Below, one piece after another: positions 16,480-44,220 of a stretch of 64,000 nucleotides of DNA. The stretch comes from Squalus acanthias (lineage: Eukaryota), in contig CM059431.1 of NCBI GenBank assembly GCA_030390025.1, positions 142,664,001-142,728,000 on the forward strand, in the 5' to 3' direction. The notes under the pieces are model-generated. The model was given only the letters and a program-made list of their open reading frames with translations, was not told the DNA's origin and did not search any database. Numbering within the stretch: position 1 is the stretch's first letter; every line of letters begins with the position of its first letter. The translations under genes and the position numbers were made by a program.

Positions 16480-16990
16480 GGTACAGGCGGATGTAGTCGA
16501 TACAGTGGAGCAGTGAGAGGTGGTCGTTGTTTGTAAGGCCGACCTGCTTTATAAAACAAAACAGATCTTCCACCTAAACAATCTGTGGCAGAACACTCAG
16601 GTTATATAAGTGACCACCTGTTACTGTTCATAAATAACATAGCTTCTTTAGTATCAGTGTTGTCGGATCAAAAACAAACGCCTCTCATTAAAGGTTATAT
16701 TTCTTCTGAAGGGATAGGGGAGGAGAGAATGGGAAAAGTGTCGCTATATTTGTAAAGGAAACGAACTATTGTGAAAGCGCCGACTTTAAAACATCAGTTA
16801 CAGACGAAACTATTTGGATTCACTTCGTTCAAAGTCACAAATTAATCCCTCACACCTGTTACAGTCCCCCAGGAGAAGGAGACCTTTGTGACGAGACACG
16901 TTGAACACAAATTAATAAATACAGTGGATTGGGACAGTGCGGAGGTGGACCAGATGGGACGTTGACTATTAAATGAAACAAGGTATTATT
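16480..16990 (+). mobile_element. Highly decayed LINE AP-endonuclease fragment
   Basis: Remnant motifs GY...DR..VAIFVK, ETIWI and YSPP appear in shifting frames. Confidence 0.4.
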
Positions 16991-17078
16991 GTGGATAAGG
17001 CAGCAGGCACTTGGGCTATGGTCTGGCCAACGGTGAATCCGGGTGGATAGTTAGGTTACCTGACAGATAGATCTCAAT

Positions 17079-17330
17079 ATGTCGACAGGTGCTCTTTGGA
17101 AAAAATATCGAGCGAAGTTCGAGAAGAAGAGTGATGACACACTATTAGTGGAGTGCCTAACGAAGTATCTGAGCGTACCTTTTGAGGATGCGGTCAAATT
17201 CATTGAAAGACAGGTTAAGGCTAAGAAATGGAAGCCAGATAAAGTAATAAGTTTGACTGCGTATGCAGTTTCGTACTGTTCGGAGCGAGATGATGATGTT
17301 TTCCTCACGCAGGAGGATAAAATGTTATAA
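17079..17330 (+). pseudogene. Short basic, helical-looking ORF of the ERV-like element (gag N-terminus or accessory protein; unresolved)
   Basis: ATG-initiated 83-aa ORF with coding-like composition. A diverged copy of its 3' part lies at 23242-23293. Confidence 0.4.
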
Positions 17331-20162
17331 CAACAGAGTTTTGTTAAAATTCTCCAAAGTCATGTTACCACATCTACCGCGATCATACAGCAACAAAGTG
17401 TTAATACAGTTCAGGCAGGATCCGCCATACAGAATCTTGAGGGAGGCAGGTGTCAGATAGTTACCCTAACAAAAGATCTAATTTGCAGGCTAATCAATCT
17501 GAAAACTCAGCAAAGAAAGGAAGAAAACAGTCATTTAGAAAGCCAGGGAAAGCTGCTGAGACGCCGATTAAAAAAAAAAAGTTTTACCGACATGGAAGTT
17601 ATTAATGTATGTGCCGAGACGAATAAAACACAAGATTTGCTGAGTGAAAGAAACCTTAAAAAAATGCTGCAGTTTAAGTTTGTTTGAAAGTGTGTGTTAA
17701 AGTGCGACAGTTTTCCTGACTATGAATATTTAAGGAGTTTTAGTATTCCTATTGTCTGAAAGTCTGTCTTTAATTCTCCAATCACTTCTCTGTTTTAAGA
17801 ATGTGCAGTTAAGATTGTACACCCAGAATTGAAAAAAGCACTGTGAACTACAATTTAATTTAAGCTGGTGTGGAAAAACTGAGAAAAACAAAAAGTTTCT
17901 TTAACAAAAGATTAAGTGCCAGTCTTAGATTTAACCTTGGATTCGCGGTTGCTATGGTGAAATTTCCAAAGCAGTTTGATTTGATTTGTTTAAATGTGAA
18001 AACAACTAATTTTTCTCCAGTTGTATTCAATGCTCTTACAGTCATTTGGAAAGGCATCTGAAGAAAGGGAAAATAGAAATATGACGTAATTTACTGTTTT
18101 CTGCAAGCATGTTCTATTGTGTTTTGATACTGTTCGTGTTTAGTTAATAAAAGATTGATCTTAATTAAATTGTAATTATAAAAGGTAACAAATCTTTTAA
18201 AGTGTGAAAACACAACTGCCTTTTTCGACTAGGAACGTTTTTTTAAATTTACGTGAAGTGATGCAATTGCGTGCACCTGACAATGCTGCACTCCACCTTC
18301 TTAAAAAACCATCAAAGGAGTTAACCCTTTCCACTGACAGCTGTTTAAGTTCACCAAGCAACAACTTTTGTATTGCTGAATGAAATTTAAAGATATTGGA
18401 CATTATTAAATTTAATTTTCTTAATTTTAAGTTAATATTTCCCCACATTGACGGAAGGAAAATTATGCCTTGATAAATTAACGCTTTGGGCTCTTAAGCA
18501 GAATAACAATGGATTCTCTCCTTTCTTTTGTTATATGAAAGTTACCTTGTAAACTAATTGCAGCACTTCTGCCTCTAATGTTAAAACACCGAGTAAACCA
18601 ACTAGCCTGGGAATCACTTGTTTCTGAAATTGGAATTGATAAGATAAATTGATAGAAATGTAATTGAACATTACAAAACCTGTCAGTTCAACAATACTGC
18701 TGTTTGGATTTTGGGATAATTTTGAAATGACAAAATAGTGTCTGGCACTAGATATTGGGTTACTTTTGGGAACATAAAAGATCCTCTAAAATAATGATAT
18801 ATAAAAAGTGATAATAACTTGGACCAAGTGAGAACGTTTGATCTATGTTTTCTATCTTAAATATTGTACTGGACAGTAAAGTTCCTCCCGGGCTCATGAA
18901 TGAGATATGAATGATAATAAAAGGGAGGTGATTGAGGGTGTGAGATTGAAACAGGAAAATTACACTACTGAATGGGAATTTTCCAAATTTTCTAGTGAAA
19001 GTCAGGAGAGTGCAGCTACAAGTAGTAAATTGATAGCTTTCTCTTGGAGACATTTGAGTCCCTGCCTATAATGAACCTTTTAAGAAAACTGAAGTTGATA
19101 GTGCGGCCATTACCCAAGACATCGGGACCATGCAGAGGAAGACGAGCAAAGATCTCCAGACGGTTATAATCTTTTGAAAAGATACCTGAAAGCCCAAGAA
19201 TGGTTGGTATCGCATGGCACGTTTGGCACAATCTTGAGTTACCGATATGAGTGTACAAATGTGATTTGTTACGTATGAAGCAATTACCATCCGGAAATGC
19301 GTGGTGAATTTGCACTGAAGAACAGGTCACAGACATGCTCAGTTACTTGAACACATCAAGACATGAAATGGTTAATGTGACTCAGGAGACAACTTTTAAA
19401 GCATTGACACAAACTCCATCGAGAAACTATCTAATTAATGAAACAATCAGAAAACAGTTAAAAACTGTGGGACCTGTTCGAGGAATTGAAATTGAAGTTG
19501 AAGTGGAAAGGTACATGGAATTTGGATTGGGATAATTGAGGCTAAGCAGAAATCATGATTAGCAAGAATTAACCACAAGATGGATACGAGTAAGAGAGAT
19601 CTGGGTAATATTTTAAGTCCATGATTTGTTGATTAAATGTAAAAATGTAATGTCGCTTGAAATGATAGTAAGACTGAATTATACCTTGTAACTGTTATAA
19701 TTGTATTTTGTCGATAACAGAGCGTGGGGAAAAAACAGTACAAATCCAGAATGAGGTGGTTTTGGTGGTGCCTCCAGTGTCACTGCTACCGCAACTACCA
19801 TGCTTTACGGGTCTACGAGGACCTGTCCCATCAACCAACACGTTTCACTCAATAGGAAAACCTATGCTCAAGTGAAACTGACAGTAAGTGAGACATTAAG
19901 TATGAGCTGCGCAATTCAGATACAACATTATCCTGTTGTCTGAGGGCTTCAGTGAGCTCGTGATGCAACTGAACTCCTCCCAAAAGCATTTTTATTGTTG
20001 GAGCAAGACAACTCGATAATAGATATCGAATTTGACAGCATAAGGGACAACTCACACTGGTGGGATATTGCGCTTAATTTACCAGCACTACCTTAGGTTC
20101 GTATTATTTCACACGCTCTGATAGTTCTCCAACTTGTAATGATGGTGTATTTGATATATTTA

Positions 20163-21600
20163 TGATGTGGAGATGCCGGCGTTGGACTGGGGTGGACAAA
20201 AATGAGAAGTCGCACAACAACAGGTTATAGTCCAACAGATTTATTTAAAATTACAAGCTTTCGGAGCTGTCGCCCCTTCTTCAGGTAGGGTAGCTGTGAG
20301 AGAATCTCCCAGAATTCACAATATAAACACAGAAAAAATGTATTCAAATCTTTCCCTACATCAAAGACACACTAAGAGCACAGCCAAGACAATGAGATGT
20401 GTCCCAGGGGGTCCAACGTGTCAAAACACCTGCTGGCTGCATATCCTCTCCATTTTGGTTTAAAAAAAAACCTGGAAAGACCGGCCATGATGTCAAGTCA
20501 CGTTCTGTATCGTGACATGAACCCGATATCGCGATTGAGGCCATCCTCATGAGTGCGGAACTTGGCTATCAGTTTCTGCTCTATGATTTGCGCTGTCGTG
20601 TATCCCGAAGGCCGCCTTGGAGAACGCTTACCCGCAGATCCGAGGCTGAATGCCCCTGACTGCTGAAGTGTTCCCCGACTGGGAGGCAACCCTCCTGTCT
20701 GGCGATTGTTGCGCGGTGTCCGTGCATACGTTGTCTCAGTGTCTGCATGGTCTCGCCGATGTACCATGCTCTGGGGCATCCTTTACTGCAACGTATCAGG
20801 TAGACAACGTTGGCCGAGTCACATGAGTATGTACCATGTACCTGGTGGGTAGTGTCCTCACGTGTGATGATGGTATCTGTGTCCATGATCTGGCATGTCT
20901 TGCAGAGGTTGCCGTGGCAGGGTTGTGTGGTGTCGTGGTTGCTGTTCTCCTGAAAGATGGGTAATCTGCTGCGAACGATGGTACTTTTGAGGTTAGGCGG
21001 CTGCTTGAAGGCGAGTAGTGGAGGCGTGGGGATGGCCTTAGCAAGGTGTTCGTCATCATCGATGACATGTTGAAGGCTGCGAAGAACATGGCGTAGTTAT
21101 TCCGCTCCGGTTGCCTCCCAGTCGGGGAACACTTCAGCAGTCAGGGGCATTCAGCCTCGGATCTGCGGGTAAGCGTTCTCCAAGGCGGCCTTCGGGATAC
21201 ACGACAGCGCAAAATCATAGAGCAGAAACTGATAGCCAAGTTCCGCACTCATGAGGATGGCCTCAATCGCGATATCGGGTTCATGTCACGATACAGAACG
21301 TGACTTGACATCATGGCCGGTCTTTCCAGGTTTTTTTTTAAACCCAAATGGAGAGGATATGCAGCCAGCAGGTGTTTCGACACGTTGGATCCCCTGGGAC
21401 ACATCTCATTGTCTTGGCTGTGCTCTTAGTGTGTCTTTGATGTAGGGAAAGATTTGAATACATTTTTTCTGTGTTTATATTGTGAATTCTGGGAGATTCT
21501 CTCACAGCTACCCTACCTGAAGAAGGGGCGACAGCTCCGAAAGCTTGTAATTTTAAATAAATCTGTTGGACTATAACCTGGTGTTGTGCGACTTCTCATT
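20163..21600 (-). mobile_element. Penelope-like element (GIY-YIG endonuclease) with an inverted 3' copy
   Basis: ORF 20581-20886 reads NVVYLIRCSKGCPRAWYIGET...LRQRMHGH (GIY-YIG). Inverted arms of ~495 bp lie at 20197-20691 and 21109-21604. A 13-bp TSD TTTGATATATTTA lies at 20150-20162 and 21601-21613. Confidence 0.93.
21514..21549 (+). ncRNA. Minimal hammerhead ribozyme motif in the Penelope terminus (mirror copy at 20252-20287, minus strand)
   Basis: TAC-CTGAAGA-A-GGGGC GACA GCTCC-GAAA-GCTT-GTA. This has the CUGANGA and GAAA cores, stem II, a palindromic stem III and a 3-bp stem I. Confidence 0.7.
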
Positions 21601-21707
21601 TTTGATATATTTAACCCGTGTAGTAAGACTTTGAACTATGTAAAATCAGAAGTTTGATTAAGATCTACACAGTTAAATACGAATGAAACAAGGTAGGGAA
21701 TCAAAAA

Positions 21708-22608
21708 TTGTTAGGACTAATAATAGAAATTCTGAGTCTAATGAATCGAACCAGACCCAAACCTTTGTTTAGAGTAGAAAATATAGGAGTGGCGAAAATA
21801 AATACCATTAATCAATTCCTCACAGCATCAGAATGGTTGGTCCAGTCAGAAGAACTGACATGGATTGAACCAAACCTACACGGATGTAGTACAAATGAGG
21901 ATGCACTCATTTGCCCATACAATTTATACGATCACTCAAAAGATACCTGTCGTTTTGATTAGAATAAGGCGGGTCTAAACTGTACCATGGAAGTGACAGG
22001 TCCATCAGATTTGAGAACCAGAACGGCCTATGTACGAGCGGGAAGATATTGTTTTACCACATTATAGACCTATTTTCATAACGGATTACATACATGTTCA
22101 ATTAAGCAGGGAACCTATTGCATTACCCTAAAAAAACACAGTCATAGGAGGAAAAACTGTCCTTGCAGTTTCTACACCTGATCAGCAGGTCTTACAAGTA
22201 GAAGATAAATTGAATATAAATTTAGAGGACTATGTCATTAAATTTGGATATGACGTCCCTGAACTACTTGAAGCCTTAACCAAATTAATGAACCAGGTGA
22301 ACGCCTCCCAACAACATTACATTACACTGGAGCAAGGGAACAAAGATGTAGCCAAGGACATTCCACATATAGTAGATTTGACACATTGGTGGGATATCGG
22401 GACGGACATAGATATTCCCCCTTGGATTAGAATAATTTCAAACGTACTGCTCATAACCCAATTTATAGTATTATTGTGCTTACTGCTCTACACCTGCTAC
22501 TTAAGGCACCTAATGTACAAGACAAGATCACAACTAGACATAATCACAGCCCAGAAACTCCTGGAACTGAGCAAACGTGGGAGAGCTAACCCATATAAAA
22601 TAATTTAA
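21708..22608 (+). pseudogene. env-like glycoprotein module B (Cys-rich domain, heptad region, TM, short tail), disrupted
   Basis: Reads WIEPNLHGCSTNEDALICPYNLYDHSKDTC...LNCTMEV...RTAYVRAGRYCFTT...TCSIKQGTYC, then the heptad LLEALTKLMNQVNASQQHYITLEQ, HWWDI and the TM IISNVLLITQFIVLLCLLLY. Two stops and one frameshift (~22135). Confidence 0.8.
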
Positions 22609-23619
22609 AATTGAGGGGTCGGTTTGAACGCCTCGCCCTCGAGGTGGAATAGAGCGTTCATGTATGATTTTACAAAGTTTTAAATGTAATGCTTTTCGTA
22701 AAAATACTATGATATATAATAATGTATGTTAGAAGCATAAAACATCTGTTACAATATGCATAACCTTCGTTAAAAAGACACAAGGCTGAGAAGTAAAGCA
22801 TCATGTTAAAATTAAGCGAACATTATGTTAACTGAGAGAAGAGTGCGAAAGTAGAAAAGATTTTCTGTTATGTTAAAAACAAGCAGCCAGTGAAGGACAA
22901 ACATTAATTCAGTTTCAAAGTAAGACAGAGAGTTTTCAACACCTAAAATCCCTTATCGCTGAAGTTTCAGCCCAAGCTAGATATTGGTCTATGTGAAAGG
23001 CAAAATATATCTGTCGTAATTCGTGGGAAGTTTATTTATGTAAAAGTTCTCATCTAAAAACTCATTCAGAAAAAGGAAGGGTATCATTAGCACCAAGAAT
23101 GGTGACATAAATCAGGCGCTGCAAGTCGCCAAATATTTTGTGAGGGAAAAGATGTAAAAAAGCACCAATTGAACACTGAAGGCAGCGCCAAACCAGAGGA
23201 AGTGAAAACTTCAGTCAACAGAAGACAGCAAGACTGAGATGAGTTTGATTGCATATACAGCTTCGTACTGTGTGGTGAAGATGGTGATGATGTCAAACAA
23301 AGGGTACGCCCCAGTGTCCGTAGTCACAGAACCGCTCCCAGAGAAGGAGTTACCAATGAATCAGTATGTTGTATAGATCTGGTCAATATGGTTCCAAGCA
23401 TAGCCAATATCACAAGGACTTCGCCGAGGCAGTAAGAAAACCTTGACATTTAAGAATTCGACACCCGTGGGAGTCCAGTAGGATCCCTGGACAATCTCAC
23501 AAGTAGAGAATTCGGGGCCAGTGGTGTCCTACCTGGATCAGCAAAGGTCTGACCCGGGGGCCAAAAAGAGGGGCTGAAGTGGCAACCCGGAGGGCCATTG
23601 GTTGACTTGAGGGGCTAAT

Positions 23620-24158
23620 AGGATAGTAACATTGCTCAATGTACTGATGTGGTGAGAACCTGTGATTATTCTATCACGTGTAAGTCGATACCTTTTAATG
23701 TATGCTGCAATAATGTAAGTATCCATGTTAGTAACATGCCATTGTAATCGCAAGGCATGATGGGAAGCTTGGCCATATGTAAGCTAAGATGTAAAAAAAC
23801 TGTAGGTGTAAGCAGTTTGGACGAAAATACGTTTTTGTCTATGAAACCAAGGCTAATGAGCAAAAGATAAGGGGGAACTGAAGGTCAGATAATGTGGTTA
23901 AAAGAATCACAGGAAAGCAGACGTAAGGGCCTTGAGACTGGGACAGTTGAGGTAACAAGAAACATCTGTCAAAGCCTACGTAACTGGTAATTAATGTTTG
24001 AGCAATTATCGGTAGTAGCTTGATTATGTATAAATAAACTTCCACGACCATTGTAAATTTGAGAGACTTCGGTGCGCTGAAGATTCTCCCCAGCATTTTT
24101 GTAATAAAGTGTTCCCGTATCGCAGCCTATCCGTGACTTCGAGTGGTTTCTTTCCACA
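23620..24158 (+). mobile_element. 3' LTR-like sequence (start uncertain; could extend to ~22650)
   Basis: TATAAA at 24029-24034, AATAAA at 24103-24108, and an end at ...TTTCCACA (24158) abutting the satellite. Confidence 0.65.
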
Positions 24159-25902: not shown

Positions 25903-27036
25903 TAATACAAAAAGAAAATACTGCAGATGCTGGAAATCTGAAATAAATACAGAAAAAGCTGGAGATACTCAGCAGGCTAGGCAGCATCTGTAAAGAGAGA
26001 AACAGAGTTAACGTTTCAGGTCGTTGACCTTTCGTCAGAACTGGAAAAAAGCAGGAAATGCAACAGATTTTTAAGCAAGTGTAGAGGCTGGGAAAGGTGG
26101 GAGGGGCTGAAAGAACAAAAGGAGAGATCTGTGATAGGATAGAAGGCGGTAGAGGTTAAGAGATATTAAGAGATATTCAAGACAAAAGGAGATGGTAATG
26201 GGAGAGGTTAAGATACAAAGGATGGTTCTAGATGAAGTTTAAATTGCGCTGGCAGAATGAAAGACAGCTGCCTTGTGGGGGAGGAAAAAAATACAGAGAA
26301 AGAGTGTGGATAATATATATATATATATATATATGATAGGAGCCGAGGTTGTGATCTGAAATTGTTGAACTCCATGTTGAGTCCAGAGGGCTGTAAAGTG
26401 CCTAATCGATAGATGAGGTGCTGTTCCTCGAGCTTACGCTGAGCTTCCGTGGAACAATGCAAGTGGCCGTGGACGGAGATGTCTGAGTGGGATTGGAGCG
26501 GTGAATTAAAGTGACCGGCGACCGGAAGCTCGGGGTCCCCCTTACGGACTGAATGGAGGTGTTCCGCAAAGCGGTCACCCAATCTGCGTTTGGTCTCCCC
26601 AATGTAGAGGAGACCACATCCTAAGCAACGAATACAGTATACTAAAAAGCAAGAAGTAAAAGTAAATCGCTGTTTCACCTGGAAGGGGTGTTTGGAGCCC
26701 TGGACAGTGGGAAGGGGGGGAGGTATAAGGTCATGTGTTGCATCTCCTGCGCTTGCACGGGAAGGTGCCGGGCGAAAGGGAAGAGTTGTTGGGGGTGATA
26801 GAGTAGTGGACTAGGAATGCTGAAAGGGGAGGTGAGGGGAAGATGCGTTTGGTGGTGGGATCACGCTGCAGGTGTCGGAAATGGCGGAGGATGATCCGTT
26901 GAATGTGGAGGCTGGTGGGATGAAAGGTGAGGACAAGGGAAACTCTGTCGTGGTTCCGGGAGGGAGAGGTAGGATTAAGGGCAGAAGTGCGGGAGATAGA
27001 ATGGACACGGTCAAGGGTCGTGTGAACCCCACTGTA
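25903..27036 (-). mobile_element. Penelope-like element (second family), left arm
   Basis: ORF 26208-26678 reads LVYCIRCLGCGLLYIGETKRRLGDRFAEH...LEEQHLIYRLGTLQPSGLN (GIY-YIG). ORF 26731-27045 carries the LVLTFHP linker. A hammerhead motif lies at 26009-26038. Confidence 0.93.
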
Positions 27037-27812
27037 GAGGGTCACAATAAGTTATGTTAGAGTATGGTCACCAACAGTAATGTTAATTCACGATCACCAC
27101 CAGTAATGTTGGAGAATGGTCAGCATCAGTAGTGTTAAACGCATCATCCCCTCAGCTCCCCTTTCAGCATTCCGTAGGGACCGCTCCCTCTGCAACATGG
27201 TGCAGATCGGAACAAAGTGTTAAGCTGCGAGTTTAGTGAGTGAGGGAGTGAAACTTAAAGGTTAATCTCTTTTTTTATATACAATCTTGTCTTGTCTGCT
27301 TGCAATTAGCATTTAACATAAATTGAAATTTACTGTTTCAAGTTTTAAGTTTCTTCCAGGCTTGGGCAGGGCTAAGCAAGCTCTGTGCTGGAGAGCAGGT
27401 GAGAGCAATTATTTAATTAACTGGTCTAGTCTGGTTCTGTAACTGCCAGAGAGCTCACTTATTTAAATCTCAGCAGTATAAATAAGGGAGGCTAGAGTGC
27501 AGTTTGTCACAGAATACAGATTGGAACAGTGTGCTAAGCTGCTAGTTTGGTGAGTGAGGGAGTAGGGGAGGGAGATGTTCCTTTCTTTCTCTATTTTTGT
27601 CAGCTTCCAGGAGAGCAGGAGCTAAAAAGCTGCACAAGAGGGGACAGAGAACCAGCGGTGAGTATTTCTACAGTATTTCTACATTCCAGTCGTTAAAGTA
27701 AAAGTAAGGTCTCTAGTTTAGAGTAAGTAGTGTTTCAGGGGAAGTAAGGTCCCTAGTGTATTTAATATTCTTTAATTTAAAGGCAGTAAATGGTGTAAAT
27801 TAAGGGTAGGAA

Positions 27813-28790
27813 ATGGCAGGGCAGCTCGGCAGCGTGGAGTGCTCCTCCAGTGCTTTGTTCGAATTCAGCGACACTTTACGTGTCCAGGGCGAACACATGT
27901 GCAGGAAGTGTCTCCAGCTGCAGCTACTCGAAATCCGCGTTTCGGAGCTGGAGCTGCGGCTGGAGTCACTGTGCAGCATCCGCGAAGCTGAGATCTTCGT
28001 GGATCGCACGTTTAACAAGGTGGTCACACCGCAAATAAAGAGTGCACAGGCAGACAGGGAATGGGTGACCACCAGACAGAGTAAAAGAACTAGGAAGGTA
28101 GTGCAGGAGTCCCCTGGGTACATCTCCCTCTCAAACAGATGTTCCGTTTTGGATACTGCTGGGGGAAATGGTTTCTCAGGGGAATGCAGCAGGAGCCAAG
28201 TCTGTGGCACTACGAGCGGCTCAGCACAACAAGAGGGGGGGGGGAAGAAGTGTGGGAAAGCAATAGTGATAGGAGATTCTATCGTAAGGGGAACAGATAG
28301 ACGTTTCTGTGGCCGCAGGCGTGACTCCAGGATGGTATGTTGCCTCCCTGGTGCCAGGGTCAAGGATGTCACTGAACGGCTGCAGGGCATTCTGAAGGGG
28401 GAGGGCGAACAGTCAGAGGTCGTGTTTCACATTGATACAAACGACATGGATAGAAAGAGGGATGAGGTCCTGCAGCAAGTATTTAGGTAGCTAGGTGGCA
28501 GTTTAAAAAGCAATACCTCAAACGTTGTAATCTCTGGATTACTTCCGGTGCCACGTGCTGGTGAGTATAGGAATAGGAGGATAGAGCAGATTAGTGCGTG
28601 GCTAAAGAGTTGGTGCAGGAGGGAGGGCTTTAGTTTCCTGGATCACTGCGTCTGCTTCTGGGGAAGGTGGGACCTGTAGAAGTCGGACGGGTTGCTCCCG
28701 AACCGGAACGGGACCAACATCCTTGCTGGGAGGTTTGCTAGTACTGTTGGCGGGGTGGAGGGGGGGGGGGGGAGGGGGTGTTAAACTAAC
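27813..28790 (+). pseudogene. CR1 ORF1p (zinc finger/leucine zipper plus GDSL esterase)
   Basis: A 225-aa open part continues through stops to the esterase C-terminus (..DGL.PN.NGTNIL). Confidence 0.88.
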
Positions 28791-28908
28791 TTAGCAGAGG
28801 GATGGGAAACGTAGTGGAGCTATAGTAGGGGATGATGCACAGCCAAACATAGAGGAAAAAACAAGTCAGCCTGGAAGGCAGAGCAAATATGTAACGGCAC
28901 AAAGGAGT

Positions 28909-31690
28909 ATGACAAGGCTGGATGGCATTTATTTTAATGCAAGGAGTCTTGCGAGTAAGGCAGATGAATTGAAGCTGTTGATGAACACATGGGTGTATGA
29001 TATTGTTGCTATCACAGAGACATGGTTGAGGGAGGGGCAGGACAGCCAGCTCAATATTCCGGGTATAGAATCTTCAGGCGAGACAAAGGGGGGCGTAAAA
29101 GAGGAGGGGTTGTTGCAATATTAATCAAGGAGTCAATTACTGCTGTAAGGAGGGATGATATCTTAGCAGGTTCCTCAAATGAGGCCATATGGGTCGAACT
29201 TAAAAACAAAAAGGGGCAAGCACTTTGCTGGGAGTGTACTATAGGCCCCCAAACAGTCAGGGGAGATAGAGGAACAGATATGTAGGCAGATCTCAGAAGT
29301 GTAGAAATATTAGGGTAATAATAGCAGGGGATTTCAACTTCCCCAATATTAACTGGGACAGTAAGTCTGTGAAAGGCTTAGCGGGTGCGGAATTGTTAAA
29401 ATGAATCCACGAGAGCTTTTTGAGCCAGCATGTAGAAAGTCCTACAAGAGAGCGGGCGGTACTGGACCTAATTCTAGGGAATGTAGCCGGGCAAGTGGTA
29501 GAAGTGAAAGTAGGAGAGCATTTTGGTGAGAGTGACCATAATTCGGTGAGATATAAGGTAGTCATGGAAAAGGACAAAGATGGACGGAAATAAAGATTAT
29601 AAATTGGGGAAGACCGATTTTAATATGATAAGCAGGATCTGGCCAAAGTGGACTGGAATTAGCTACTTGCAAGGAAATCCACATCAGAGTAGTGGGAGTC
29701 TTTCAGAAAGGAAATAGAGAGAGTACAATGCCAACATGTTCCCGTAAAGGTCAAGGGTGGGACCAACAAGCCCAGGGAACCCTGTATGTCAAGGGATATA
29801 CAAGAATGGTTTAGGAAAAAAACGGAGGCTTTTGGCAGATACAAAGGACTTAAAACAGTGGAAGCCCTAGAGGAGTACAGAAAGTGTAGGGGGGTACTTG
29901 AAATGAAATTAGGAGAGCGAAGAGGGGGCCTGAAAAAACACAGGCGGGCAAAAGAAAGGAAAATCCCAAGGTGTTTTATAAGTATATTAAGGGCAAGAGG
30001 ATAACCAGGGAAAGAGTAGGGCCCATTTGGGACCAAAGTGGCAATCTGTTTGTAGAGTCAGAAGATGTAGGTGAGGTTATAAATGAATATTTTGCATCTG
30101 TGTTCACTATGGAGAAGGACGATGTAGGCATAGAAATCAGACAGAGGGATTGTGATATACGTGAACAAATTAGTATTGAGAAGGAGGAGGTACTAGCGGT
30201 TTTAGCTGGCTTAAAAGTGGATAAACCCCCAGGCCCAGACGAGATGTATCCCAGGCTGCTGTGTGAGGCAAGGGAGGAGATTGCAGGGGCTCTGACACAA
30301 ATTTTCAAAACCTCTCTGACCACAGGGGAGAAGCCAGAGGACTGGAGAACAGCTAACGTAGTACCATTATTCAAGAAGGTTAGTACGGATAAACCAGGGA
30401 ATGACAGGCCAGTGTGCCTAACATCAGTGGTAATGGAATTATTGGAAAAAATTCTGAGGGACAGAATAAGTCTCCACTTGGAGAGGCAAGGATCAAACCA
30501 GGATAGTCAGCATGGCTTTTTCAGGGGGAGATCATGTCTGACCAATTGGATTGAATTTTTCGAGGAGGTGACTAGGTGTGTGGATGAGGGTAGTGCAGTT
30601 GATGTGGTCTACATGGACTTCAGTAAGGCTTTTGACAAAGTCCCGCATGGGAGACTGATCAAGAAGGTAAGAGCCCATGGGATCCAGGGCACCTTGTCAA
30701 ATTGGATCCAAAATTGGCTTAGTGGCAGGAGGCAGAGGGTGATGGTGGAAGGTTCTTTTTGTTACTGGAAGCCTGTGTCCAGTGGTGAACCGTAGGGATC
30801 GGTGCTGAGTCTTTTGCTGTTTGTAGTGTACATTAATGATTTAGATATGAATGTCGGAGGTATGATCAGTAAGTTCGCATGTGACACGAAAATTGGTGAA
30901 GTGGTAAATAGCGAGGAGAGAAGTCTCAGGCTACAGGACGATATAGATGGTTTGGTTAGTTGGGCAGAACATTGGCAAATGGTATTTAACCCTGAAAAGT
31001 GTGAGGTGATGCATTTTGGGATGACTAACAAGGCAAGGGAATAAACAATGAATGGTAGGACCATAGGAAGAACAGAGGATCAGAGGGACCTTGGTTTGCA
31101 TGTACATAGATCCCTGAAGACAGCAGGTCAATTAGGTAAGTTGGTTAAAAAGGCATATGGGATACTTGCCTTCATTAGCCGAGGCATAGAATATAAGAGC
31201 AGGGAGATTATGATGGAACTGTACAAAACGCTGGTTAGGCCACAGCTGGAATATTGTGTGCAGTTCTTGTTGCCACACTATAGGAAGGATGTGATTGCAT
31301 TGGAGAGGGTGCAGAGGAGATTCACCGAGATGTTACCTGGGCTGGAGCGCTTCAGCTATGAAGAGAGCCTGAGCAGGGTGGGGTTGTTCTCCTTAGAGCA
31401 GAGAAGGCTGAGGGGGGACCTAATTGAGGTGTTCAAAATTATAAGGGGCATATAGAGGGTAGTTAGAAAGGAACTTTTCCCCTTAGTAGAAGGGTCAATA
31501 ACCAGGGGCCATGCTTTCAAGGTAAGGGGCAGGAGGTTTAGAGGGGATTTCCGGAAAAAAAAACATTTTCACCCCGAGGGTGTTTGGAATCTGGAACTCA
31601 CTGCCTGAAACGGTGGTAGAGGCAGGAACCCTCAACATTCAAGAAGCATTTAGAGGAGCACTTGAAACGCCATAGCATACAGGGCTACGG
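28909..31690 (+). pseudogene. CR1 ORF2p endonuclease/reverse transcriptase, fragmented
   Basis: ORF pieces starting at 28909, 29022, 29786, 29971, 30802 and 31048 carry canonical APE and RT motifs. Confidence 0.92.
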
Positions 31691-32284: not shown

Positions 32285-35200
32285 ACCAGTAAAATAGTCA
32301 TAGGCTCACCACAAGTAATGTTAGAATAGGGTCCCCATCAGTCATGCTAGAGTAGGGTCAGCATCAGTTAAGCTAGACTAGGTTCACGACCAGTAATTTT
32401 CGACCAGGTTCACCAACAGTCATGTTAGAGTAGTTTCAACACCAGTAACGATAGAGTAGGGTCACCACCAGTTACGTTAGAGCATGGTAAAAACCAGTAA
32501 TGTTAGAGTAGAGTCACCACCAATAATGTTCGAATAGTGTCACCATCAGTAATGATACATTAGAGTTACCAGCAGTAATGTTTGTGTAAAGTAAGCCACC
32601 AGTAATGTTAGAGTGGGGCATCACCAGTAATGTTAGAGTGGGGCATCACCAGTAATGTTACAGAAGGAGCACTACCATCTATGTTACTGTATGATCATCA
32701 TCAGTAAAGTTATCATACAGTCACAACCAGTAATGTTAGAGTAGGGTCACAGCTAGGAATGTTAGAGTTGGGTCACAGTCAGTTGTTTTAAAGTAGGGTC
32801 AGCAAGAGTAATGTTAAACCAGGGACACCACAAGTAATGTTAGATAGTTTCGCCACCAGTAACGTTAAAGTAGAGTCATTACCAGTAATGTTAGAGTACG
32901 ATCACCGCCAATAATATTAGAGTCGGGTCAACAACAGTATTGCTAGAGTAGGGACGCCACCAGTAATGATAGAGTTGTTTCACCACCAGTAACGTTAGAG
33001 TAGGGTCATCACCACAATTGTTAGAGTAGGGACAGCACCAGTAATTTTAGAGTAGGAACACCATCAGTAATGTTAGAGTAGGATCACCACCAGTAATGAT
33101 AGAGTAGTTTCATCCACAGGTAACGTTAGAGTAGGGTCACCACAAGAAATATTGGAGTTGAGTCACCACCAGTAATGTTAGAGTGCAGTCAGCAACAGCA
33201 ATGTTAGTGTGGGTCACCACCATTAATGTTGGAGTAGATTCACCACCAATAATGTTAGAGTAGGGTCGCCAACAGCAATGATAGAGAAGGGTCACAATCA
33301 GTTATGTCAGAGAGGGGTAACCAAAGGTAATTTTAAATCACGGTCACCACCAGCAATGTAGGAGAATGGTCACCATCAGTAGTGTTAAATTAGTTTCACG
33401 AGGAGAAACTTTCGAGTAAGGTCACCAACAGTAACGTTATAGTACGATCAACACCAGTAAGGTTGGAGTTGGGATATCACGATTAATTTTAGAGTAGGTT
33501 CACCACTTTTAATGTTAGACTAGTTTCTTGACATGTACACTGAAAGTACGATCAACTTCATTAATGTTAGCGTAGGGTCATCACCTGTAATGTTAGAGTA
33601 GGTCCACCACCAGTAATGTAAGAGTGGGGTCATCTCCAGTAATGTTAGACTAGGGTCATCATCAGTAATGTTACAGTCGAGACAGCACCAGTAATGTCAG
33701 AGTAGTTTCACAACCAGTAATGTTAGAGTAGGTTCACCACCAGTAATGTGAGAGTAGAGTCACCACCAGTAATGTGAGAGCAGAGTCACCACCAGTAATG
33801 TTCGATCAGGGTCAACAACAGTAATGCTAAAGTAGTTTCACCACCAGTAATGTTAGAGTAGGGTCTCCATCAGTAATGTTAGAGTAGGGTCAACACCAGT
33901 AATGTTAGAGTTGGGTCACCACCAGTAATGTTGGAGTAGGATCACCACCAGTAATGTTAGAGTAGGGTCACCACCAGTAATGTTGGAGTAGGATCACCGC
34001 CATTAACGTTAGAGAAGTGTCAGCACTAGTACATTTATCATAGGCTCACCACCAGTAATGTTAGAGTTGGATCACTGTCAGTAATGTTGGAGTAGGGTCA
34101 CCACCAGTAACAATAGAGTAGAATCACCACCATTAAAGTTATCATAGAGTTACCACTAGTAATGTTCGAGTAGGGTCACCACCAGTAATGGTGGGGTAGG
34201 TTAATCACCAGTAATGTTAGAGTAGAGTCACCACCAGTATTGTTAGAGCAGGGTTATCATTGTAATGTTATGGAAGGGTCACACCAGTAATGTTAGAGTA
34301 GGTTCACCACCAGTAATGTTTGAGTCGAATCACCAGCAGTAATGTTAGAGTAGGGTCACCACCAGTAACGTTGGAGTGGGATCACCATCAGTAATATTAG
34401 AGTAGAGCACGACAACATTTATGTTAGGGTATGGTCAATACCAATAATGTTAGCGTGGATTCACCATCAGCAATGTTAGTATAGGGTCAGCATCAGTAAT
34501 GTTAGTGTAGTTCCACCAACAGCAATGCTACAGTAAGTCACCATCAGTAATGTTAGTTTAAGTTCCCCACCATTGATTTTAGAGTATGGTCACAATCAGC
34601 TATGTTAGAGCAGTGTCACCATCAGTTGTGTTAGTGTAGTTTCACCACCTGTAACGTAAGAGTACTGTTACCACCAATAATGTTAGAGTACAGTCACCAC
34701 CAATAATGTTCGAATATGGTCACAAGCATTAATGTTAGAGTACTGTCACCATCAGTAATATAAGAGTTGGTTCACCGCCAGTAATGATAGAGTAAGGTCA
34801 ACACCATTAATGTTCGAGTATGGCCAGCACAATTAATGTTAGAGTAGGATCAACACCAGTCGTGTAAGTGTAGCGTCACCACAAGTAATTTTCGAGTAGG
34901 GCCACCATCATTAATAAAAAAAGTAGAGTCACCACCAATAAAGATAGAGTAGGGAAACCACAGATTTGATGTTAGAGTAGGGTCAGCTAACCTAATGTTA
35001 TAGTGATACACCATCAGCAAGGTTACATTAGGGTCTCCACCAGTAATGATAGAGCAGTGTCACAACAGTAATGTTAGAGTAGTGTCTCTACCAGTAATGT
35101 TAGAGTAGCGTCACCACAAGATAATGTTAGTGCAGCATTGCCATCATTAATGATAGACTAGAGTTACTAACAGTAATGTCAGAGTGAAAAAGCACTAGTA

Positions 35201-38045
35201 ATGTTAGCGTAGGAACAACATCATTAAATTTAGAGTAGAATCACCACCATTACTTTCAACTAGGCACGCCTCCAGTAATGTTATTGCAGGGTCACCACCA
35301 GTAATGTTAGAATAGGGTCACCACCATTAATGTTAGTGTAGTGTCACCACCAGTAATGTTAGATTATAGTCACCATCAGTAATGTTAGAGTAGGGGCAAC
35401 AGCAGTAATGATAGAGTAAGGAAACCACCAGCAATGTTAGAGTGGGTCACCACCAGTAATGATAGAGTAGGGTCACCACCAGTAATGATACAGTCGGGTC
35501 ACCACCAGTAATGTTAGATTATAGTCACCATCAGTAATGTTAGAGTAGTGTCACCACCAGAAATTTTAGAATAGCGTCACCACCAGTAATGATAGAGGAG
35601 GGTCACCGGCAGTAATGATAGAGATGTTAGAGATGAGTTACCACCAGTAATGTTAGAGCAGTTTCACCACCAGTAATGTTACAGTTGATACACCACCAGT
35701 AATGTGAGAGCAGGTTCAACACCAGTAATGTTAGAGTTGAGACACCAGCAGTAATGTTAGAGTAGGGTCACCACCAGTAATGTTAGAGCAGGTTCACCAC
35801 CAGTAATATTAGAGCAGGTTCAGCACCAGTAATGTTAGAGCAGGTTCACCACCAGTAATGTTAGAGCAGGTTCACCACCATTAATGTTAGAGTTGGTTCA
35901 CCACCAGTAATTTTAGAGCAGGTTCACCACCAATAATGTTAGAGCAGGTTCAACACCTGTAATGTTACAGTTGAGACTCCACCAGTAATGTGAGAGTGGA
36001 GTCACCATCATTTATGATAGATTAGAGTCACCACCAGTAATGTTACAGCAGGATCACCACTAATAATGTAGGAATACGATCACTACCAGCAATAGCAGCC
36101 TAGATTCATGACATGTACTGTGAATGTAGGATCAACTTCAGTAGTGTTGCACAACAAGTAATGATAGAGTAGTGTCACCAGCAGTAATGTTAGAGTAGGG
36201 TCATCACCAGTAATGTTAGAGTAGGGTCACTACCAGTAATGTTAGAGAAGGGTCACCAACAGTAATGTTAAAGTAGTGTCACCACCAGTAATGTTAGAGT
36301 AGGGTCAACACCAGTAATGTTAGAGTCGGGTCAACACCAGTAATGTTAGAGCAGGATCACCATCAGTAATGTAAGAGAAAGTTCACCACTATTAATGTTA
36401 GAGTTGATACACCACCAGTAATGTTAGATTTGGTTCACCACCAGTAATGTTAGTGTTGAGACACCACCATTAATGTTGGAGCAGCTTCACCACCAGTAAT
36501 GTTAGAGTAGGGTCACCACCAATAACGTTAGGGTAGTGTCACCACCATTAATGTTAGAGTAGATTCAAAATCAGTAATATTAGAGTAGAATCCCCACCAG
36601 TAATGTTAGTGTTGAGACACAACCAGTAATGTCCGAGCAGGTTCACCACCAGCAATGTTAGAGTAGGGTCACCACCAGTAATGTTAGGGTTGAGACACCA
36701 CAAGTAATGTTGGAGCAGCTTCACCAGCAGTAATGGTAGAGCAGGTTCACCACCAGTAATGTTAGAGTTGAGACACCACCAGTAATGCTAGAGTAGATTC
36801 CCCACCAGTAATGTTAGAGCAGGGTCACCACCAGTAATGTTAGAGCAGGTTCACCACCAGTAATGTTAGAGTTGAGACACCATCAGTAATGTTAGAGCAA
36901 GTTCACCACCAGTAATAATAGAGTAGGGTCACCACCAGTAATGTTAGAGCAGGTTCACCGCTAGTAATGTTAGAGGTCAGACACCACCAGTAATGTTAGA
37001 GTAGGTTCTCCATCAATAATGTTAGTGTAGGGTCAACACCAGTAATGCTAGAGTAGATCCCCACCAGTAATGTTAGAACAGGGTCACCATCAGCAATGTT
37101 AGAGCAGGGTCACCACCAGTAATGTTATAGTTGAGACACCACCAGTAATGTTCGAGCAAGTTCACCACCAGTAATGTTATAGTTGAGACACCACCAGTAA
37201 TGTTAGAGCAGGTTCACCACCAGTCATGTTAGAGTAGGGTCACCACGAGTAATGATAGAGTAGGGTCACCACCAGTAATGTTAGAGTAGTGTCACCTCCA
37301 GTAATGTTAGAGTAGGGTCACCACCAGTAATGTTAGGGTTGAGACACCACCAGTAATGTTAGTGTTGAGACACCACCAGTAATGTTAGAGTAGGGTCATC
37401 ACCAGTAATGTTAGAGCAGGTTCACCAATAGTAATGTTAGAGTAGTGTCACAGCCACTAATTTTAGAGTAGGCTCACCACCAGTAATGTTAGAGTAGAAT
37501 CACCATTATTAATGTTAGATTTGAGACACAACCAGTAATGTTAGATTTGGTTCACCAAAAGTAATGTTAGAGCAGGTTCACCATAAGTAATGTTACAGTT
37601 GAGACACCACCAGTAATGTAAGAGTAGAGTCACCACCAGTAATGTTAGAGCAGGTTCACCACCAGTAATGTTAGAGTAGAGTCACCACCAGTAATGTAAG
37701 AGTAGAGTCACCACCAGTAATGTAAGAGTAGAGTCACCACCAGTAATGTTAGAGCAGGTTCACCACCAGTAATGTTAGAGCAGGTTCACCATAAGTAATG
37801 TTATAGTTGAGACACCACCAGTAATGTTAGAGTAGGGTCACCACCAGTAATGTTAGAGTAGGGTCACCAGTAGTAATGTTTGATTAGTGTCACCAGCAGT
37901 AATGTTAGAGTAGTGTTACCACCAGTAATGTTAGAGGAGGATCACCACCAGTAATGTTAGAGTAGAGTCAACACCAGTAATGTTTGAGTAGGGTCTCCAC
38001 CAGTAATGTAAGATTAAAAGCATCGTCAGTCATGTTGGAGCCGAT
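32285..38045. repeat. 26-bp satellite, main block (~220 units)
   Basis: Same unit as the left block. The central 7 nt vary among GTAGGGT, GCAGGTT, GTTGAGA and GTAGAGT. Confidence 0.98.
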
Positions 38046-41100: not shown

Positions 41101-42903
41101 CCTGGGTACCACTCGCCAAAATATATCAATCTGACGTCAAAGCACAATGTAGTGAAAGTCAGGTAAGTTTAGTTAAGATGGATAATTGATAACTTTTTCT
41201 TCGAAATGGCTGTGTCCCTTTTTATACTGAACGATGAGAAGTTTGTATTTGATAGCTTGGTCACTATCCAAAAACATCAGGACCATGCAGGGGGAGATTC
41301 TAATCAAACACCTTCATGCCCCTGGTCGTTCTATATGATAACCAAAAAGGAGAGGGATGGCTTGTATTGGATGGCTCGCGCGGCATAATCTTTGGAATCG
41401 CTGTGTGTGCAGAAGTGACATATCGTACATAAAGCAAACAGCCTGTGAAATACTTGATGAAGAATAGGTTCGAAGACATGGTCAGTCACACTGATAACAC
41501 CACTGCATGAACTGTTTAATCTGGCTCTGGAGAGTGAGAACATATGTAAAATCAAGGTGCAGGGACCTGTTCCATAGAATAGGTCGAGATAGATATATGA
41601 TGCTGATGAAAAATTGTTTAGTATTGACCATAAATATTCTAACGCCAACAAAGGATGCAATGTAAGGAAATGGTTAATCAAACCACCCGACATTCTTCTA
41701 AAGCTATACTGTATTGGGTTGTCTTTCCATTGAAGCAATGTTAACCTTTAGCCTTTTCCTGTTATGCAGGGAAGTATAAATCTACTTAAAGTACCATTGG
41801 CTGTTGGGCCAGCGCTGACGCTGCAGCAACGGTCCGTTTCAGGATGAAGTCATAAGCGATTTAATTAAACTCATGACATTGCAAAAAGATTCATCAATTT
41901 CAGGGAACTTTAATCATTTAGTAACAGTGTGGGAAGTAGTACTGCAAAGCAAGACATCCGTGCGTCTATCATCATTTTGAATTAGTACAATAGATACAGA
42001 AACAAAGACGGACTTATTACTAAATGATTCATTTGGTACAATTGCAATTATTTGAATCAAGAGTGAAACTATCGATCATATATCTCAATTAAATTATCTC
42101 TATTTGGATTTTTATTTTAAATTTGATATACTCTTGTAATGCAGGATTGTGTGGATTGTCAAGTACAGGGAATGAGAAAAATGCATGAAAACTGGCAGTT
42201 TTAATGAATATTGTTTTGGTAAAGGCCTAAGCAACTCAGAACTGTGACAAGTTTGGGTCTCCACCCAATCAATATCAGGTGTGGGTCTAATTTCTACCTT
42301 TTAAATGTTTACTTAAATAAAATTGCGTGTATTATGTGCTTAATAAATCTATGGCACTTCACTCCAATGTTCAAGAGCCTTATTGAAAATCTTACGCTAA
42401 TAAAAGCCTTTGTTTTTTAATTGTGAATGGGCTCCATTTACTTACTGTGATTAACTCTTTAACGTTCCTCTTGACACTGACATCATCCAAAAGCCAAAAT
42501 ACAATTGATTGCAGGTCCGCGGGCTCTGCCAATCCGGATGGCATCCAACTTCTGGGGAAATTGCTCATTAGATGCGGACAGTTCTGTGCAAGAATCACAT
42601 TCTCATTTATCTCGATTCAGACGACCCACAATATTTAAGGCAGGAGTCAGGCAGCAGGCGGAGGTGTTAATTCCATCAGTCAGCGATGTTCTGAACCCAG
42701 CTACAATCCTGAGAACGCGACCTGCAATCAACCACATCATCCGAACTCAACAGGTAATATAGAAAGCAAAGGCATGAATAATTAACCATTACATTACCGC
42801 GTCACATTCAATCTGATGTGGTTGTGTTTCCCCGTCCCCTGTTTCTATTTAAAATGTTTTGATACTCCCTTTGAGTTTCTCTATTTCTAATTAAACAGTT
42901 ATT

Positions 42904-43625
42904 GGCCCAAAAATTCGTGAGGAAGCCTTCGTGTGAGGGTAAGGCTTCCCCGCGATCTCTCACTGCGCGTTGGCTTTTTCAGTTCCAGCTCGCACGAACT
43001 TGATGTTCTGGACAGCTGCTGTGCTGGGCTTGCGTATCCCACAGGCGTAGTTAATTCGTGCGAGCTGTGGGATCACGTGACTCAGTTAGAGCCAATGGCA
43101 GCACACCATCTTCCATTCATAACTTTCACATAAGTGCTGTGAAAGCTATGAATCTATACCCCCCAAAAGAACAGCTAAACCTCAATTAAATTTAAAAAAA
43201 AAACCATCACATTAATAAAATAAGTATAGTTAAATAAATTAACCATTTCAAATAAAAAATTAAATTTTTGAAAAAATTTAAAATCTTTTAAAAAGTTATA
43301 AAAATAAACTTACCTGTCTTTAAAGTCTCTAAAAAAGATATACCTGTTTAAAAAAATTCAAAATAATACTTAATTCACTACTTACCTTGTTAAAAGTGGG
43401 TCTTCCTCCTCCTTTTTTTATGTGTAAAATCTTCCGTACTTACCTGCGTGTTGAAACCACTAAGCGCACTGCATGCGCGCAGCCTGTAGCAACCGCCCCC
43501 TTTTCCATTCACCAAGTGCCGGTGTTCAGCGCATGCGCAGTGCATGCAGAAAACCGGCAATTGGAGACAGAATACGCGAGAGTACGCAGTGCGTACTCTC
43601 GCGTAGCGGCACTAATGTTTGGGCC
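42904..43625 (+). mobile_element. Non-autonomous PIF/Harbinger-type MITE, copy 1
   Basis: TIRs GGCCCAAAAATT / AATGTTTGGGCC and a 3-bp TSD ATT. Removing the element restores a unit of the host minisatellite. Homologous to 61486-62250. Confidence 0.85.
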
Positions 43626-44220
43626 ATTGTGTTTCCTAGACATTGCTTGCCCTCTATTTGTTGTTAAACATTAACTGTGTTCCCCTGTCAAGTAATTCTA
43701 TATACATGGGTACTATGTTCTTGCGCCCCATTTTCTAATTAACCAGTTACTGTGTTTCCCTGACATTCCCGTCTCCTCTATTTCTAAATAAAGAGTTACT
43801 GTCTCCCCAGTTCCCCATTTCTAAATAAACAGTTACTGTGTTACCCCATGTCTCAGTTAATTCTATTTCTAATTAGACAGTTCGTTGATTACCCTGAATT
43901 TCCTTGTCCTCTATTTCTAATGCAATAGTTGCTATCTTCCCCTGTCCCCTACTTGTAAATGAAGTGTTATTGTGTTCCGCTGGTCGCTATTTCTAATATC
44001 AGTTACCATATTCCACTGTGCTCTATTTCTAATTAAACCATCACTGTGTTCCTCTATATTTCCTTTAGTCTATTTCTAATTAGCAGTTAATTTATTGCAC
44101 TTAATTTTCCTGTTCTCCATTTCTAATTAAACATTTACAGTGTTCCCCTGAATTCTCCTTTATTCGAATTCTAATTTCGCTGCCCGTGTTCCCCTGAACT
44201 CCCCTGCTCTCTAGTTTTAA
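43626..44220. repeat. Degenerate minisatellite (~35-45 bp unit; also at 42820-42903)
   Basis: Recurring CTATTTCTAATTAAACAGTTACTGTGTTCCCCTG. Confidence 0.8.

Follow-up and report, generated by a model that had tools for sequence, protein, structure and literature searches.

A multi-copy endogenous retrovirus family of a shark with a predicted F-type envelope, probably snakehead-retrovirus-like, and a dead half of its env gene in a pol-less hybrid element

Snakehead retrovirus (SnRV) is treated as an unclassified orthoretrovirus in PMC12193657, and its endogenous relatives have been described as "clade Huo" (PMC6001957) and, in a chimaera, as the SnRV-related CmiERV lineage I (PMC4422223). SnRV-like endogenous retroviruses (ERVs) have already been reported from a chimaera, frogs and coelacanth, which speaks against the original prediction that the env sequence analysed here comes from a poorly sampled lineage. 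Most reverse transcriptases (RTs) of shark ERVs were assigned to clade III, according to PMC11089739. As for the envelope (Env) proteins, those of orthoretroviruses are filed as class Ia and an F-like fold is taken to set the foamy viruses apart (PMC11468914). An F-type env has also been described for lokiretroviruses in PMC7947760, the Table S2 of which leaves six chondrichthyan genomes unmarked.

The stretch analysed here (64 kb of Squalus acanthias DNA, hereafter the window) contains a piece of a retroviral env, which we call env remnant 2. We consider it probable that it derives from a multi-copy ERV family with an Env predicted to resemble the F proteins of paramyxo- and pneumoviruses (class Ib) and with a likely position in the SnRV-like group, of which the window retains a dead C-terminal half. 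Env remnant 2 (21633..22608, plus strand) covers the C-terminal half of an Env of the F type: Cys-rich β domains, the membrane-proximal heptad repeat (HRB), a Trp-rich segment, a transmembrane helix (TM) and a tail. The Cys block (21726-22127) comprises EPNLHGC-x8-CPYN, four more Cys residues and GRYC (7 Cys in total), and the region 22132-22605 encodes the heptad, an HWWD..PPW segment, the hydrophobic TM and a tail of ~34 residues. All features of the layout originally proposed are present, but the piece begins at 21633 rather than at 21708, and it is no single open reading frame, as it is interrupted by stops at 21684, 21960 and 22065 and by a frame change near 22130. The CX6CC motif and the LQNR-type immunosuppressive domain (ISD) are absent by pattern from all eight sequences scanned (two window pieces and six genomic copies), which bears out the earlier remark on the lack of CX6CC and of a CKS-17 ISD.

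The tblastn search aligned env remnant 2 with residues 399-715 of the genomic env copy P0003 (65-68% identity, E-value 7e-114), a similarity that chance cannot explain. The furin site of the family copies corresponds to P0003 residues 260-263, i.e. upstream of the aligned part, so the window piece has no cleavage site, fusion peptide or N-terminal heptad repeat (HRA); it also has no start, and for these reasons the window copy is inert as a fusogen. The locus as such is an unremarkable copy, dead and rearranged. None of five proteins from the window pieces matched a Pfam family. In the genome, the env family has thousands of candidate matches (all 150 scored, the best 150 of 8146 candidates, have E-values ≤ 3e-22).

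The element that carries env remnant 2 lacks the 5' LTR and the primer-binding site, and no match to a 5' LTR was found upstream of it within the window. Its 5' end (16948..17477, plus strand) is a leader and 5' gag piece of a pol-bearing family, family A (67-80% by blastn to copies of family A, beginning at 16948; tblastn: 40% identity between 17214-17477 and Gag residues 1-111). The next piece (17471..17773, plus strand) is common to a second ERV backbone, represented by the C3 element (79.5%) and by family-C loci (75-90%), and its position suggests that it corresponds to the gag region. It is followed by the family-C internal region (17792..20162, plus strand, 80-88% nucleotide identity to family-C loci), which ends in another env piece, env remnant 1. 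The end of the latter is divided by a later, presumably Penelope-like insertion (20163..21600), in which inverted arms of 496 nt (99%) occur together with a minus-strand GIY-YIG-like frame. A 13-bp target duplication flanks the insertion (20150-20162 and 21601-21613), and two paralogous C7 loci have no insertion, their alignments overlapping by 13 bp. Env remnant 1 ends within 21601..21634 (plus strand), where it is joined by recombination to env remnant 2 over a shared 2-nt GA at 21633-21634; at this point the family-C copies without the junction diverge and the family-A env begins. Downstream of env remnant 2 there is a decayed LTR region of the family-A type (22650..23239, plus strand, 73-78% nucleotide identity to the post-env region of the closest subfamily and to both LTRs of locus L035) and then, at 23563..24158 of the plus strand, a polypurine tract (23563-23573) and a complete LTR of a second type (TG...CA, 23575-24158), which is 90-91% identical to three LTR loci ending at the same points and has at least 40 genome matches listed. 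No RT or integrase (IN) match was found in the window element; it is a hybrid that lacks pol and contains two env remnants, one behind the other.

Several further features were observed around the element. A short part of the 5' gag piece recurs at 23239-23293 (79% to 17247-17298), just after the family-A LTR region, and looks as if a second element had begun there and was then deleted. A long array of a 26-bp satellite directly follows the 3' LTR (24160 onward) and recurs at ~32700-38000; the same arrangement follows the two paralogous C7 loci. A second decayed ERV remnant (41150-43630) contains a family-C-like part (~41150-41540, 76-77% to L037/L038) and a piece of the family-A integrase region (~43010-43630, 72-73%). 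The segments 16500-16900, 26208-27051 and 27810-31455, which flank the element, are presumably ordinary LINE (CR1/L2-like) and Penelope-like fragments.

Env remnant 1, likewise of the F type, has decayed further and carries a separate WW segment and TM (~20030-20162); positions 19767-20168 align with residues 433-586 of P0006 (tblastn E-value 2e-11; family profile E-value 9e-13). The possibility that the window holds one env split by the insertion is ruled out, since the parts on either side come from distinct envs and each contains a TM. The SKR/DLGNIL sequence (19590..19615, plus strand), for which a remnant of the cleavage site had been suggested, lies inside this upstream remnant and is not a furin site: it precedes the strand aligning to P0006 residue 433 by 177 nt, whereas the family furin site lies ~280 codons before the equivalent strand, and the furin/fusion-peptide part of the family profile found no match around 19590-19615. 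Family C is very abundant (at least 150 genome matches, the best 150 of 7297 candidates), and the 10 loci fetched include several short, LTR-bounded elements, such as L037 with ~3.1 kb between its LTRs. Many family-C env copies carry, like the window (20091 region), one TAG stop somewhere within the matched 69-codon stretch, which suggests that these copies may have spread from an already broken master copy. In L038, L039 and L042, RNase H/integrase-like frames from a different type of retrovirus lie downstream of the family-C env remnant, pointing to a cassette shuffled among several LTR families.

All 40 matches listed for the junction span it (40 scored of 1307 candidates, query included) and they are spread over many contigs, while L035 carries the hybrid junction between LTRs that are 97.4% alike; the hybrid therefore likely moved as a unit. 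The clusters of hybrids on C3630, C10 and C7 are likely local duplications. We propose that env remnant 2 was joined behind the env remnant of the other family at the 2-nt microhomology, probably by template switching of the RT, that the pol-less hybrid would then have been copied by enzymes supplied in trans, and that it may afterwards have been duplicated locally before the Penelope-like element was inserted.

Of 10 env loci of the family fetched with their flanks, several have the structure LTR-gag-pro-pol-env-LTR (LTR pairs 92-98% alike), the full order being LTR-gag-pro-RT-tether-RH-IN-env-LTR. An origin of this env from a host gene is ruled out by the LTR/gag/pol context of the family copies. 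Pfam searches with family proteins (8 of 10 queries with such hits) identified a protease, RT, Ty3-like tether (E-value 9.7e-23), second RNase H and integrase, together with a CCHC knuckle in Gag (zf-CCHC, E-values 2e-7 and 5e-7); gag and pro-pol are in the same frame, with one stop between them. The primer site reads like tRNA-Lys. Among nine further loci with the closest envs (10 kb fetched), the family RT was found in six and IN in seven. The full HMMER search with env reported 50 homologues at E-value ≤ 0.001, unlike the word-indexed homologue searches, which gave no match, and 13 of the 15 homologues examined carry species names, belonging to three frogs and to six species of sharks and rays, the latter providing the best named matches. 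This is consistent with the predicted endogenous retrovirus of cartilaginous fish. A scan of viral contigs for loci related by the family RT returned none. A cluster of 16 near-identical env-family members from one frog genome (P0033 cluster, most of 677 residues) has an Ig-like-looking N-terminal part, with a weak V-set match for P0035 (E-value 0.045), and the N-terminal module of the env may be exchangeable.

The order of elements in the family Env is evident from the sequence, with the roles of the domains being predicted: a signal-peptide-like start, an N-terminal extension of ~200 residues, an F2-like strand and helix, and a furin site R-x-K/R-R, followed by the fusion peptide (GLIND...), a long HRA, Cys-rich β domains, HRB, the Trp-rich segment, TM and tail. 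The extension could serve as a receptor-binding module, and membrane fusion would proceed as in F proteins, with furin cleavage, extension of HRA and formation of a hairpin with HRB. The pairwise dN/dS ratios (0.14-0.27 for the window pieces against family copies, 0.23-0.40 from one subfamily to another and 0.40-0.61 for close copies) form a pattern expected for past selection followed by decay, and suggest that infection once depended on the env.

The fold of the Env was predicted for P0003, a genomic copy with an open frame, beginning at residue 151 (565 residues, 45-row alignment, AlphaFold2 monomer; pLDDT 72.5, pTM 0.53). A Foldseek search of the PDB gave 249 matches at E-value ≤ 0.001, and all 40 rows listed are paramyxo/pneumovirus F proteins or foamy virus Env (best match: hPIV3 F, E-value 2.5e-12; foamy 8rm0, E-value 8.5e-8). 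The TM-scores are low (0.24-0.39) and the rmsd values high, probably because the monomer model lies between the pre- and post-fusion shapes. VIA, a search independent of Foldseek, likewise reported only F proteins and foamy Env among its top 10 rows (Z 10.4-7.5; NDV F: Z 10.4, rmsd 19.0, 374 residues aligned; 8rm0: Z 8.9, rmsd 6.2, 278 aligned); chains that are helical but unrelated come next, from Z 7.4 downward. These alignments include the portion of the model that is homologous to the window piece (residues 249-565), e.g. with RSV 9hvw_D over 206-437, and the long HRA helices correspond to model residues 115-227. The furin site of the family copies (RQKR or RRRR) precedes GLIND, and R-G-L-I-N-D occurs in seven of the eight rows of A1. 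Sequence-based searches returned no comparable match: for four genomic env copies, hmmscan against Pfam gave only chance coiled-coil hits, with no TLV_coat in any of the four and no Fusion_gly (PF00523), the latter being absent also among 25 of the 28 Pfam families listed for 45 env members, and the sequence search of the PDB gave nothing at E-value < 0.05 (foamy 8rm1 at 1.7). Nonetheless, the matches of the model to paramyxo/pneumovirus F and foamy Env hold up the original call of an F-type fusogen distinct from the gamma type, and the class Ib three-domain fold, with interwoven N- and C-subunits, is a well-supported prediction of the modelling.

BFVD, searched with the same model, reported baculovirus F, lispivirus and chuvirus glycoproteins, and the Envs of the walleye epsilonretroviruses WEHV-1 (Q9WHI8, E-value 2.3e-8) and WDSV (A4GTG3, E-value 4.5e-7); the top match was A0A384ZVF2 (928 aa, E-value 9.3e-14). 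Since the walleye Env models match as well, the claim that the env is not of epsilon type was too strong, although its gamma part stands and the RT falls outside the gamma/epsilon clade. A model of the SnRV-like env (pLDDT 67.8) matched F proteins at E-value 5e-6, but it is no independent evidence, since its alignment was built from the envs of the shark family.

The lineage of the family was inferred from its RTs. Reference RTs were labelled not by name but by how their motifs match the RT alignment supplied with PMC7947760 (SnRV-like: L069 and P0085; foamy-like: L053-L068; Loki-like: five proteins); for the gamma/epsilon and Gypsy rows, the labels rest on Pfam content and motifs. A quick tree comprised 73 rows (8 of 16 foamy-like and 60 of 120 gamma/epsilon and Gypsy rows), of which 38, picked to keep each group (4 foamy-like), entered a careful tree under the LG+G4 model; fish foamy-like, ERV-L and CmiERV sequences are not among the references. 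The family RTs share a clade with frog and coelacanth elements (81/96), which in turn lies within Retroviridae (100/97). They are separated from Gypsy by branches of 100/100 and 100/97, and have a dual RNase H; a gamma/epsilon clade (100/99) excludes them. AU tests in which they were grouped with gamma/epsilon or Gypsy rows gave p 0.035 and 0.06, respectively, the latter value indicating that these tests have limited power. The RTs of pol-bearing relatives fall within neither of the two groups that would have spoken against the original prediction. By identity, the family RTs are nearest to the SnRV-like L069 (46.4%), compared with 35-38% for gamma/epsilon, 36-38% for Loki, 34-37% for foamy and 31-33% for Gypsy rows. 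SnRV is their sister in the best tree with a support of only 38/52, and the base of Retroviridae is a polytomy. Together these data make membership in the SnRV-like group of Retroviridae the most likely, though weakly resolved, assignment.

Three other placements deserve consideration. The shark-frog-coelacanth clade could be a deep retroviral lineage of its own with an F-type env, equally distant from SnRV and from other class III groups; the support of 81/96 for that clade set against 38/52 for the SnRV link, the env identity to L069 of only 19% over 273 columns and a Gag with no clear homology to SnRV beyond the knuckle all fit this reading, which we nevertheless regard as unlikely, because SnRV is the nearest named RT both by identity and in the best tree, and its env is homologous by sequence to the family env, as no F or foamy chain of the PDB is. 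Improbable, too, is the view that the family, with its F-type env, is a basal foamy-related lineage of cartilaginous fish on the spumaretrovirus side. When PDB sequences were searched with the RT, foamy Pol scored highest (132 bits; Ty3 87, MLV 79; SnRV RT absent among the PDB rows listed), the leading fold matches include foamy Env, a joint clade with foamy viruses has an AU p of 0.11, and the tRNA-Lys-like primer site also fits this placement. Yet the family RTs lie outside the mammalian foamy clade (100/100) and are clearly closer to L069 by identity. Foamy Gag lacks a Cys-His box and foamy Pol is expressed apart from Gag, unlike the CCHC Gag and the in-frame gag/pro-pol of the family. The family Env also lacks a sizeable insert at the place, after the F2-like strand and before the furin site, where the receptor-binding domain (RBD) of foamy Env sits (PMC11468914). 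The foamy-like component of the original prediction is retained for the fold and disfavoured for the lineage. That the family belongs to the lokiretroviruses, as their first member in cartilaginous fish, is very improbable and largely refuted as judged from the sequences: the F-type env, the R-x-K-R site, the well-kept Ty3-like tether and the second RNase H fit the Loki description in PMC7947760, but the Loki rows form their own clade (100/99), sister to the 100/97 clade that holds the family RTs, a grouping of the latter with Loki is rejected (AU p 0.028), the family motif LPQGFHNSP differs from their PFGYxNSPAEF, and the six chondrichthyan genomes carry no mark in Table S2, if the mark means what we suppose.

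The combination of an F-type Env, homologous to that of SnRV, with RTs that lie inside Retroviridae and outside the Loki, mammalian foamy and gamma/epsilon clades blurs the line drawn between class Ia and foamy Envs; if the SnRV-side placement is true, the F fold would be widened inside ordinary retroviruses. We tentatively suggest, with slightly less than even confidence, that the F-type (class Ib) env of SnRV, of the shark-frog-coelacanth clade and of the walleye epsilonretroviruses is the ancestral retroviral envelope rather than a peculiarity of foamy and Loki viruses, and that the gamma- and beta-type envs were later replacements. The homology to SnRV Env and the many genomic copies make this question testable. 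Surveys of fish and amphibian envs that start from gamma- or beta-type queries (10.1101/2021.11.23.469661) would be expected to miss the family. The lineage is known from RT surveys and its F-type env appears undescribed within the literature searched, which holds no report of such an env in SnRV-like or walleye retroviruses; most subscription papers lie outside that literature, and Calcraft et al. 2024 (Cell) may cover the subject.

Among the named systems, SnRV is the closest by RT. The comparison of its env (L069) with the family profile (hhalign: 93.8%, E-value 1.7e-7) covers the F2/furin/HRA/Cys-rich part, and both Envs have an N-terminal extension before the F core; the in-frame gag-stop-pol arrangement and the CCHC Gag are also common to the two. 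They differ in the length of the env, which is shorter in the family (tail of ~34 residues vs 136 in SnRV), in the Lys-like primer site of the family and in Gag, which is unalignable apart from the zinc knuckle. Foamy Env (8rm0, 8rm1) shares the class Ib fold with the family model, but has its RBD as an insert before the furin site (PMC11468914), of a size not seen in the family. Lokiretroviruses resemble the family in the F-type env, the basic furin site, the tether and the RNase H (PMC7947760), and differ in RT clade and RT motifs, with Pfam Fusion_gly unmatched in the family env. The Envs of WEHV-1 and WDSV match the model, but are far longer (~1160-1320 residues) and belong to viruses from whose RT clade the family is excluded. 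The paramyxo/pneumovirus F proteins (hPIV3 1ztm, NDV 3maw, RSV 3rki) are the best fold matches at 11-15% identity, from which the family Env is distinguished by its additional N-terminal extension and by being encoded in an LTR retroelement.
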